A stretch of 64,000 bases of DNA, from assembly GCF_057098645.1 (NCBI RefSeq), contig NZ_CM169472.1; one strand, written 5' to 3'. Shown piece after piece: positions 1-60,388 of the stretch (its first letter is position 1; each line of letters starts with the position of its first letter). The notes beneath the pieces were generated by a model. That model worked only from the letters and a program-made list of their open reading frames with translations, searched no databases and was not told where the DNA came from. The translations under genes and the position numbers were made by a program.

Positions 1-131
1 AATAGCGATTTTTCCAACGACAAAAGCTAAATATCGCAAAAACCTCAGTAAAAATCTTGCTGGAGCTATTATTGCTAAGTAACATTTACCCCCTGAAGTT
101 AATGGATCAATCAACAGAGATGTGAGTTGTA

Positions 132-257
132 ATGAATCGTCTTATTGAATTAACAGGTTGGATCGTTCTTGTCGTTTCAGTCATTCTTCTTGGCGTGGCG
201 AGTCACATTGACAACTATCAGCCACCTGAACAGAGTACTACGGTACAACACAAGTAA
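132..257 (+). CDS. blr: Small membrane protein Blr, 41 aa (beta-lactam resistance / divisome-associated)
   Basis: Hand translation gives MNRLIELTGWIVLVVSVILLGVASHIDNYQPPEQSTTVQHK*, which I recognise as Blr; it lies just upstream of cnu as in K-12. Below the ORF-track size cutoff. Confidence 0.7.
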   Translation: MNRLIELTGWIVLVVSVILLGVASHIDNYQPPEQSTTVQHK

Positions 258-529
258 GCTCTGCACTTGTAGAGCGACATGCTGCCCGTCCGGGTGCATG
301 TTTTCACTTGTCGGATATTAAACCAGGAATTTATTATCTTGTTCGATGTTGTTGGTGATTGTCAGGGATAGTAAAGCGCGTTACTCTTTTCAGAGCAGTT
401 TTTCATCCCTGAATATTTGCCATCAGCGCATTCTTATTATTGTAATAACACAAGCGTTCACTTTTGGTGAAATTTTATCATCACTAATAATACCTACCCC
501 TTTGGTATTAATTATTTTATGGACCTTTT

Positions 530-1929: not shown

Positions 1930-4818
<2,889 letters not shown>

Positions 4819-32962: not shown

Positions 32963-33127
32963 GCCTTATCTCCACCTCTTCGCGTCATTACGCGATATTC
33001 ATTAAAGTGGCGAAAGCATGACAGCAATCACAAAAAAATGAAAATAACAAAAAGAGAAAACACTTTTGCCATTTTGCTAACAAACAGGAAGGAGATGCGA
33101 GGGAGAACGCGCTCCCTCGAGAGGAAA

Positions 33128-33217
33128 TCAGTGCAGCGCGGCAGTCAAACCCACGGCTACGATCAAACCGAGGACGATAATCGTTGTTACCAGTGAAAAT
33201 TTAAGGTCGGTGCTCAT
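33128..33217 (-). CDS. ynhF: Small membrane protein YnhF (29 aa)
   Basis: Hand translation of the minus strand gives MSTDLKFSLVTTIIVLGLIVAVGLTAALH*; below the ORF-track cutoff. Confidence 0.75.
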   Translation of the reverse strand: MSTDLKFSLVTTIIVLGLIVAVGLTAALH

Positions 33218-33515
33218 CAAGTTTTCTCCTTTTTTATTACCACACAAAAAGTGATATTACGCATTTTTACACACTGTGATGAAAAAATCTCCCGTCATTT
33301 ATAATGATAAGTGTTTTTACCACTTCCCCTTTTCGTCAAGATCGGCCAAAATTCCACGCTTACACTATTTGCGTACTGGCCATTGACCCCTTCCTGACGC
33401 TCCGTGTCGTTTTTCCGGCGTACCGCAACACTTTTGTTGTGCGTAAGGTGTGTAAAGGCAAACGTTTACCTTGCGATTTTGCAGGAGCTGAAGTTAGGGT
33501 CTGGAGTGAAATGGA

Positions 33516-42106: not shown

Positions 42107-42183
42107 GCGTTCATAGCTCAGTTGGTTAGAGCACCACCTTGACATGGTGGGGGTCGTTGGTTCGAGTCCAATTGAACGCACCA
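42107..42183 (+). tRNA. valV: tRNA-Val (anticodon GAC)
   Basis: 77-nt cloverleaf including CCA; anticodon loop cttGACat. Confidence 0.93.
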
Positions 42184-42187
42184 TCCT

Positions 42188-42264
42188 GCGTCCGTAGCTC
42201 AGTTGGTTAGAGCACCACCTTGACATGGTGGGGGTCGGTGGTTCGAGTCCACTCGGACGCACCA
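42188..42264 (+). tRNA. valW: tRNA-Val (anticodon GAC), second copy
   Basis: 77 nt, 4-nt spacer after valV; differs from valV by compensatory changes in acceptor and T stems. Confidence 0.93.
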
Positions 42265-42371
42265 GATTTTCTTAATCTGGTCTTCTACTTTTTCCCTCTG
42301 CTTCTTCTCTGTATCCAATACGTTAAAAGATTTACACTGTCTTCGTATGCGTTATCAGAAGGAGAATCGCT

Positions 42372-42677
42372 ATGGCAACTTTGTTACAACTTCATTTTTC
42401 TTTCAATGGCCCATTTGGCGACGCAATGGCTGAGCAGCTTAAACCGCTTGCTGAGTCGATTAATCAGGAACCTGGTTTTCTGTGGAAGGTATGGACCGAA
42501 AGTGAAAAGAACCACGAAGCCGGTGGGATCTACCTTTTCACTGATGAAAAAAGCGCCCTTGCCTATCTGGAAAAACACACTGCCCGACTGAAAAATCTCG
42601 GCGTTGAGGAAGTTATCGCCAAAGTTTTCGATGTCAATGAGCCACTGAGTCAAATCAATCAGGCAAAACTCGCCTGA
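42372..42677 (+). CDS. ydhR: Putative monooxygenase-like small protein YdhR
   Basis: 101-aa ORF following valVW; hairpin plus T-run after its stop (42684..42705). Confidence 0.85.
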
Positions 42678-47399: not shown

Positions 47400-49247
<1,848 letters not shown>

Positions 49248-49287
49248 TTACTGATTTAGTGTATGATGGTGTTTTTGAGGTGCTCCA

Positions 49288-49563
49288 GTGGCTTCTGTTT
49301 CTATCAGCTGTCCCTCCTGTTCAGCTACTGACGGGGTGGTGCGTAACGGCAAAAGCACCGCCGGACATCAGCGCTATCTCTGCTCTCACTGCCGTAAAAC
49401 ATGGCAACTGCAGTTCACTTACACCGCTTCTCAACCCGGTACGCACCAGAAAATCATTGATATGGCCATGAATGGCGTTGGATGCCGGGCAACCGCCCGC
49501 ATTATGGGCGTTGGCCTCAACACGATTTTCCGCCATTTAAAAAACTCAGGCCGCAGTCGGTAA
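49288..49563 (+). CDS. insA: IS1 InsA (transposition repressor / DNA-binding protein)
   Basis: 91-aa [27 protein letters not shown]... matches InsA. Confidence 0.93.
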
Positions 49564-49985
49564 CCTCGCGCATACAGCCGGGCAGTGACGTCATCGTCTG
49601 CGCGGAAATGGACGAACAGTGGGGATACGTCGGGGCTAAATCGCGCCAGCGCTGGCTGTTTTACGCGTATGACAGGCTCCGGAAGACGGTTGTTGCGCAC
49701 GTATTCGGTGAACGCACTATGGCGACGCTGGGGCGTCTTATGAGCCTGCTGTCACCCTTTGACGTGGTGATATGGATGACGGATGGCTGGCCGCTGTATG
49801 AATCCCGCCTGAAGGGAAAGCTGCACGTAATCAGCAAGCGATATACGCAGCGAATTGAGCGGCATAACCTGAATCTGAGGCAGCACCTGGCACGGCTGGG
49901 ACGGAAGTCGCTGTCGTTCTCAAAATCGGTGGAGCTGCATGACAAAGTCATCGGGCATTATCTGAACATAAAACACTATCAATAA
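49482..49985 (+). CDS. insB: IS1 InsB reading frame (expressed as InsAB' transposase by -1 frameshift)
   Basis: 167-aa ORF in the -1 frame overlapping insA; the A-run slippery site lies near 49535-49545. Confidence 0.9.
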
Positions 49986-50387
49986 GTTGGAGTCATTACC
50001 TACGCTGCTGACTCTGTCCCCAACACCAGATATTTTCCCTAACCCGATAGTGTATGAGAAAAGATTTAACGCCGATAAACTAATCCTTTATGGTTAGGAG
50101 AAAAAATAATGTGGTTATTCTGGGCTCTTAACATTGATCATTATCAATTAAAATTACAAAGCAAGAAATTATAAGTGAACTGATATTTATTATCATTTGA
50201 AATAAATTTAACTTAAGCGACAATTATTTGTGACGGTCATTGCAGAAAATAAAAATAATATTATCGCTATAAATTAAAATACATACCGAAATTCGTATAA
50301 TTTCAGCAGTTGTTATTTAGAATGATTAACTGGACCGCAACTGAAGCAAGAATATCAGGATGAAGCTTATCGCCTCATCCTGAATGG

Positions 50388-50597
50388 TCATTTTACCAGT
50401 GCGTTAATGACGGTTTCCATCGCCTGCTTTTCCAGCTCACTGCGCTGAATGCGTTTATTGGCTAATGCTGTACGTAATACGCCTGCGATAACAATATGCT
50501 TTGGTTCCTGCCCCAGATCGCGCATTTCCAGCACAACTTTACCGACAACTCTGCACATTTCTCGGTACAGTTCATCCTCTTTTGTCCGATTTCCCAT
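50388..50597 (-). CDS. fumD: Small protein YdhZ (FumD, fumarase D), 69 aa
   Basis: ORF MGNRTKEDELYREMCRVVGKV... in the position upstream of pykF. Confidence 0.8.
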   Translation of the reverse strand: MGNRTKEDELYREMCRVVGKVVLEMRDLGQEPKHIVIAGVLRTALANKRIQRSELEKQAMETVINALVK

Positions 50598-60130: not shown

Positions 60131-60215
60131 AACCCTTAAGTCTGTGCGACACAGGCTTAAGGGTTTCTACCCCATCCGGCGCTTATCTCCGGCACTCTCA
60201 GTGGCTTAGCTCTTG
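60131..60215 (-). ncRNA. rydB: Candidate small RNA RydB (sufA-ydiH intergenic); boundaries approximate
   Basis: Minus-strand hairpin (60140..60176) followed by a U-rich tract; position matches where I recall rydB lying in K-12. Sequence identity not verified. Confidence 0.3.
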
Positions 60216-60388
60216 AAGGGGCGATAAGAATAATCTCATAAAGCTAACCCGCCGTTTTAACACAAACTGCGATTAGTATTATTTTTGAACAATATCAGGC
60301 GGGTAGATAAGCAGTATTAAGAAGGTCATCGAACCTGGACGGAGGTTAATCCAGGTCGATTTGGCGAACTTGCGGCATTAAGTCAGGA

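Follow-up and report, generated by a model that had tools for sequence, protein, structure and literature searches.

The open reading frame at positions 132-257 (plus strand) of the window, the whole stretch of 64,000 nucleotides analysed here, is the Escherichia coli gene blr, a reading to which a probability of about 0.96 can be assigned. The frame runs from ATG to TAA over 41 codons plus the TAA stop and encodes the peptide MNRLIELTGWIVLVVSVILLGVASHIDNYQPPEQSTTVQHK. A clean ATG...TAA frame of 41 amino acids had been pointed out here in the preliminary description, and RefSeq places a CDS named blr (WP_001296096.1, "division septum protein Blr") on exactly the same bases in the E. coli O145 chromosome. 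Over bases 1-800, the window shows 100% identity with E. coli O145 chromosomes such as NZ_CP028379.1. Since blr is a known gene that RefSeq annotates in essentially every E. coli genome, the finding, although correct, is an ordinary one. As a discovery it has little weight: the gene was reportedly described in 2000, with a link to the divisome said to have been made in 2012, and has dedicated Pfam and NCBIfam models.

The identification as Blr, also proposed in the preliminary description, was borne out by these two curated models. The peptide matches PF24673 (Blr_divisome) with 87.9 bits (E = 2.9e-25; cut-off, 27 bits), with residues 1-41 aligned on profile positions 1-41, and the NCBIfam equivalog NF033231 (small_Blr) with 91.3 bits (cut-off, 40 bits), with residues 2-41 on positions 1-40. 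The K-12 protein (b4409, YP_025303.1, encoded by 1704551-1704676 of NC_000913.3) lies in the same ydgJ/cnu locus, is also 41 aa long and is identical at 39 of 41 residues; the two substitutions, A36T and S37T, are both located in the variable C-terminal tail. At the DNA level, there are only seven differences from K-12 in bases 1-529 of the window. When a 271-base query around blr was compared with complete E. coli genomes, 5390 of 5426 were matched with at least 80% coverage and, among the matches listed, all were annotated as blr.

The genomic position of the gene leads to the same conclusion. As had been noted from the start, the frame is upstream of cnu: cnu/ydgT occupies 530-745 (NF007703, 167 bits), with blr 272 bases upstream on the same strand, and is followed by ydgK and rsxA-E. 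According to RefSeq, blr is found in both the O145 chromosome and K-12 between the divergent ydgJ and cnu/ydgT, upstream of ydgK and rsxABC. For a wider comparison, orthologous DNA was taken from Salmonella, Citrobacter koseri, C. farmeri, Enterobacter, Lelliottia, Leclercia and E. fergusonii (seven loci, six genera), the Intestinirhabdus orthologue (P0042) being left out of this DNA comparison. The gene order add, ydgJ (minus strand), blr, cnu, ydgK, rsxA, rsxB is the same in the window and in all seven other loci. Further along this region, rsxC (2500-4818, plus strand) encodes 772 aa, whereas the K-12 annotation (2223 bases) implies 740 aa. A unit of about 32 residues is repeated in tandem throughout the C-terminal half of RsxC, and the difference in length from K-12 is probably one of repeat copy number.

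The Blr family is small. Word-indexed and exhaustive profile searches together gave 32 cluster representatives (50% identity) at E values up to 0.001. The matches inspected by name belong almost all to Enterobacteriaceae, in 11 genera: Escherichia, Shigella, Salmonella, Citrobacter, Enterobacter, Lelliottia, Leclercia, Intestinirhabdus, Kluyvera, Klebsiella and Superficieibacter. The sole match outside this family of bacteria, a fragment of 24 aa, comes from a contig of 240 bases attributed to Pseudomonas aeruginosa and was taken as contamination. The orthologues of other Enterobacteriaceae share with the Blr of the window the helix, a HIDNYQ(P/S)P motif and the terminal lysine. Most of them start four codons earlier, are 45-51 aa long and carry F, L or I at the position of the E. 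coli Met1.

Regarding the structure of the peptide, Blr is predicted to be a single membrane-spanning helix (approximately residues 2-27) with a tail of 14 residues. Among windows of 19 residues, the highest Kyte-Doolittle mean, 2.46, is reached at residues 4-22, and AlphaFold2, run with a 26-sequence alignment, returned one helix at residues 2-27, with a mean pLDDT of 94-98 over residues 1-20 and a low-confidence tail. Both predictions agree with the single transmembrane segment of the preliminary description; the hydrophobic segment itself, LIELTGWIVLVVSVILLGVAS, corresponds to codons 4-24 (141-203, plus strand). With its 41 aa, the peptide also has the size of the family, whose members are of about 41-51 aa and present an N-terminal helix and a short polar tail. 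A search of PDB sequences at E values up to 1 did not find any solved Blr structure.

The best conserved stretch of the family in the 26 sequences is the HIDNYQPP motif, placed at the junction of the helix and the tail (codons 25-32; 204-227, plus strand) and presumably on the periplasmic side of the membrane. Within it, H25, D27, N28, Y29, Q30 and P31 are invariant, while I26 and P32 are at least 90% conserved. HIDNYQ is retained in Klebsiella and Kluyvera, and Superficieibacter has HIDRYE. The complete set of invariant residues in this alignment is R3, E6, L7, G9, S16, L19, L20, A23, H25, D27, N28, Y29, Q30, P31 and K41, and the Blr of the window carries all 15.

All the functional evidence on Blr concerns the K-12 allele rather than the O145-type allele of the window. 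To our knowledge, blr is not essential. The result linking its inactivation to beta-lactam susceptibility is said to originate from Wong et al. 2000. Karimova et al. 2012 reportedly identified FtsL as the screen partner for Blr and found fluorescent Blr at the septum in an FtsN-dependent manner; in the same study, overproduction of Blr is said to have rescued ftsQ1(Ts) at low osmolarity, and the blr ftsQ1 double mutant to have been more prone to filamentation. Published K-12 work places Blr in the inner membrane and reports it at the division septum. According to PMC12429562, Blr is a 41-residue membrane polypeptide whose inactivation makes the cell more susceptible to beta-lactams and other inhibitors of peptidoglycan synthesis. 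By two-hybrid analysis, Blr contacts late divisome proteins, seven of the 12 divisome proteins tested being positive (PMC7648144); the partners of small membrane proteins in this assay (BACTH), those of Blr included, are described in the same work as implausibly numerous, with false positives being possible, and the list of direct partners of Blr is uncertain for this reason. Moreover, a role in stabilising the divisome under envelope stress is attributed to Blr, and the tagged protein is cleaved by the intramembrane protease RseP as one of its class I substrates, both in vivo, by the chromosomally encoded enzyme, and in vitro, by the purified one (PMC10470546). Another small, non-essential membrane protein is likewise reported to have many divisome partners by two-hybrid and to aid division under stress (PMC7648144, PMC12429562). 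It is longer than Blr, is encoded at a different locus and presented no sequence relationship in the Blr searches, so the likeness is functional only.

Considering these data, a mode of action can be proposed in which the Blr helix would be oriented N-in/C-out, and the helix and the adjoining HIDNYQPP motif could dock onto transmembrane or periplasm-proximal parts of late division proteins. Docked in this way, Blr would keep the division complex from falling apart if synthesis of the septal wall is impaired. Both the orientation and the part given to the motif are proposed on the grounds of conservation, the distribution of charges and the fact that RseP prefers type II substrates.

Concerning expression, a putative sigma-70 promoter was recognised at 57-85 (plus strand), with TTGCTG at 57-62, a 17-base spacer and TAACAT at 80-85. 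It is suggested by conservation across genera: CTTGC and GTAA-AT blocks are invariant and keep a constant spacing in the nine aligned upstream regions (seven genera), and the blocks at 57-85 are identical in K-12. The leader from this putative promoter to blr would measure about 40 bases. A scan for consensus promoters did not report any promoter upstream of blr, and it missed the site at 57-85 because its -35 hexamer matches the consensus at only three of six positions. Immediately downstream of the stop codon, folding and a terminator scan revealed two hairpins (258-275 and 276-302, plus strand), the second of which runs into UUUU (301-304) and is terminator-like. The RNA fold of 250-315 has an energy of -28.5 kcal/mol (z = -3.95 against shuffles), and the terminator scan gave a match at 283-296. 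In the hairpin at 258-275, the sole difference from K-12 (position 271) changes a U-A pair to U-G, and pairing is kept. Taking together the conserved promoter-like blocks and the terminator-like hairpin after the stop codon, blr is probably transcribed alone, as a monocistronic unit. A promoter-like site was also reported by the promoter scan before cnu (308-337).

An open reading frame of this length is, by itself, no more than chance gives. Open reading frames of at least 20 aa number 977 in the window; 179 have 41-59 aa, and in 63 of these the first start is ATG. The frame could then be imagined as a chance one in a non-coding spacer, whose conservation would come from signals in the DNA or RNA, for instance a small RNA or the cnu promoter region, a reading to which the lack of a strong ribosome-binding site and the structured region after the stop codon also lend themselves. 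However, an Rfam search of positions 1-1400 at E values up to 1 gave no match, and therefore no described RNA family explains the region. Above all, the substitutions follow the codons. Comparing the window with the seven other loci, pS over codons 2-37 is 0.40-0.94, near saturation, and pN is 0.025-0.19; dN/dS is about 0.04-0.13 where it could be computed, and the variable alignment columns number 13, 6 and 34 at codon positions 1, 2 and 3, respectively. With K-12 added to the frame test (nine sequences, seven genera), frame +1 is the only one that is free of stops across the 41 codons in nine of nine, and all the other frames, on both strands, contain at least one stop in each sequence. Judging from this comparison, blr is a conserved coding frame under purifying selection. 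The scores far above the cut-offs of curated protein models and the reported detection of blr by Ribo-RET in a K-12 derivative also stand against a chance frame, which is highly improbable. It is the homology, the synteny and the substitution pattern that raise blr above chance. Two antisense frames are also present, at 107-184 (25 aa) and 177-299 (40 aa), and a gene on the opposite strand could in principle account for the conservation, particularly as the third codon positions of the 107-184 frame coincide with those of blr. This explanation is vanishingly improbable given that no minus-strand frame across blr stays free of stops in any of the nine sequences; the 107-184 frame has no start codon in C. 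koseri, C. farmeri and Leclercia, and that at 177-299 is broken by stops in Salmonella, C. koseri, C. farmeri, Lelliottia and E. fergusonii. Conserved in neither case, both frames were rejected as genes.

It could also be proposed that the frame is a leader peptide whose translation regulates cnu, as blr is on the same strand and upstream, has a pair of hairpins after its stop codon, and some small open reading frames act as regulatory leaders (Weaver et al., 10.1101/511675). Nevertheless, this is very unlikely in view of the distance of 272 bases to cnu, the hairpins and the promoter-like site that lie within it, and the conservation of the peptide, which is under strong purifying selection and has a motif with six invariant residues, something rarely seen in leader peptides. 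Furthermore, deletion and overproduction phenotypes have been ascribed to the peptide itself (PMC10470546, PMC12429562). Translation of the frame has indirect support, from the purifying selection and, for K-12 derivatives, from ribosome profiling. With retapamulin (Ribo-RET), blr appears among the genes detected in a BW25113-type K-12 derivative, and it was found by this approach only, being absent from the proteomics and the reporter-transposon insertion results (PMC12350097, Supplementary Table S1). The gene is not named in the text of the Weaver preprint (10.1101/511675) and is absent from PMC11429745 and PMC11188072. The preliminary description had made its reading depend on homology to Blr and on ribosome occupancy; the former was found in the family matches and the latter in the Ribo-RET detection in the K-12 derivative (PMC12350097).

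Another aspect is the visibility of the gene to automatic tracks of open reading frames. In this allele blr has 41 aa and does fall below the 60-aa threshold of the track, as was observed initially. The broader claim, that the track was missing short real genes, is true, although the effect is modest, as only two annotated protein genes of the window are shorter than 60 aa: blr and cydH. The latter (ynhF; 33128-33217, minus strand) encodes a 29-aa accessory subunit of cytochrome bd-I and is annotated. Two others are just above the threshold, ynhH (64 aa) and ydiH (62 aa). A simple hydropathy filter was passed by 11 open reading frames of 20-59 aa in the window, and the two highest hydropathy scores among its short frames are those of blr and cydH. 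The gene is therefore useful as a control, since a 60-aa cut-off hides real genes, here blr and cydH.

Several observations concern other short frames and RNA genes of the window. The mechanical open reading frame of cydH has 39 aa (33128-33247), and the Rfam sRNA family STnc550 (33125-33515, minus strand, 396.5 bits) covers the same transcript; therefore, this "sRNA" family contains a small protein gene. Gathering-level Rfam matches were also obtained for the rydB sRNA (81.6 bits; 60162-60222, minus strand), between sufA and ydiH, and for the antisense family HPnc0260 (108.7 bits; 42226-42388, minus strand). The latter overlaps the start of ydhR and the second of two tRNA-Val genes (42107-42180 and 42188-42261).

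One of the frames that pass the hydropathy filter, the 31-aa MSLKLNLFQMIINISSLIISCFVILIDNDQC at 50128-50223 (minus strand), has a hydrophobic stretch with a mean Kyte-Doolittle value of 2.31 and sits in an AT-rich spacer between an IS1/ydhY remnant and fumD; it may be a chance open reading frame. The IS1 element, whose start is GGTGATGCTGCCAACTTACTGATTTAGTG, occupies 49234-50000, and its 767 bases replace 984 bases of E. coli O145 RM9872 that comprise the 5' end of ydhV and most of ydhY. As a consequence, ydhV is truncated (a 606-aa open reading frame at 47400-49220) and most of ydhY is lost. In the rest of the window up to 49233, there are only 19 scattered differences from RM9872. In the neighbouring fumD/ydhZ region, the matching RM9872 annotation has fumD/ydhZ as a frameshifted pseudogene, the exact RM9872 fumD sequence string was not found when searched in the window, and a 69-aa open reading frame is present at approximately 50388-50597 (minus strand).

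The failure of blr to appear in a 60-aa track is allele-specific. In the window, an in-frame TGA is found at 123-125, so ATG 132 is the sole canonical start for the blr frame in this strain, and the 41-residue form would be its only product. From position 120, the window reads ATG TGA GTT GTA ATG-AAT and K-12 reads ATG TGG GCT GTA ATG-AAT at the equivalent place. The K-12 frame is thus open upstream, and its mechanical first-start open reading frame has 66 aa from a TTG and would pass the 60-aa filter. Exact 41-base queries centred on codon 123-125, in which any 28-base seed must include the codon, found the TGA form in 399 of 5426 complete E. coli genomes (O157:H7, O55:H7, O145:H28 and some others), and the TGG form of K-12 in 4980 of 5426 (about 92%). 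It is because of this TGA, three codons upstream of blr, that the gene is hidden from the track only in this lineage; whether it passes the filter is decided by one base, which differs from one E. coli lineage to another. The start codon is the only aspect on which the analysis adds to the existing annotation, and this lineage dependence of the length of the open reading frame was new to us.

The same codon pair raises the question of where Blr starts. In the ATG-TGA at 120-125 (plus strand, blr frame), the ATG aligns with the apparent start in seven other genera, whereas the stop is lineage-specific. An ATG at this position (-4) is present in eight of the nine sequences compared. Enterobacter, Lelliottia, Leclercia and C. 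farmeri have ATT or ATC at the place of the E. coli Met1 and ATG four codons upstream, and the Blr of Klebsiella, Kluyvera and Superficieibacter begins with M-x-x-x-[F/L] before [N/T/S]R. Altogether, seven of the eleven genera sampled appear to start Blr four codons upstream, and among the sequences examined the Met1 of the E. coli annotation is found only in Escherichia, Salmonella and C. koseri. The common form of Blr would therefore be of about 45 aa or longer. Some deposited starts do not follow this pattern: in Enterobacter (locus L004, 2001-2126), Blr starts at ATT in the 41-aa form, and in C. koseri (locus L005, 2001-2156) at ATA in a 51-aa form. By comparison with the other sequences, the conserved ATG at -4 would be the more plausible start in both loci, and the RefSeq starts at ATT (P0046) and ATA (P0012) look as if they had been set to fit the 41-aa form.

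It is possible, then, albeit rather doubtful, that the true product is longer at the N-terminus, with 45 aa from the ATG at -4 or with the 51-66 aa that some records annotate. The TGA of the window would then be a nonsense mutation at the ancestral codon 2, and Blr would be produced only if ribosomes initiate, or re-initiate, at the internal Met, perhaps in smaller amounts. The N-termini of Klebsiella, Kluyvera and Superficieibacter and the ATG at -4 in the DNA of Enterobacter, Lelliottia, Leclercia and C. farmeri are consistent with a longer product, as is the fact that K-12-type alleles, 4980 of 5426, keep this ATG in frame and open. On the other hand, the TGA at 123-125 leaves the 41-aa product as the only one possible in the window. 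In E. fergusonii the extension was closed independently (AAG TAA at -4/-3) while the conserved 41-codon gene was kept, which argues that Met1 is a working start in Escherichia. Judging by the titles of the papers, the published functional work used the 41-residue protein. As for the longest forms, the ATG at -10 lacks conservation, two genera having AAG, and it is separated from blr by indels whose lengths are not divisible by three. The duplex energies with the Shine-Dalgarno region are weak for all the candidate starts and do not discriminate between the ATGs; that of ATG 132 (-2.9 kcal/mol) does not correspond to a Shine-Dalgarno of any strength.

The 41-residue protein encoded at 132-257 is the annotated form of Blr, and its relation to the rest of the family can be proposed tentatively, as an idea with the odds against it: the 41-residue Blr could be a derived, N-terminally shortened form, K-12-type strains could also make a 45-residue MWAV-Blr, and the lineage of the window could be a natural nonsense variant limited to 41 residues. 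For the family as a whole, the 41-aa models and some RefSeq starts in other genera (ATT, ATA) may misplace the N-terminus of Blr. If the proposal were true, the start-stop ATG-TGA, perhaps followed by re-initiation six bases downstream, could change the amount of Blr in the cell and hence the intrinsic tolerance to beta-lactams.
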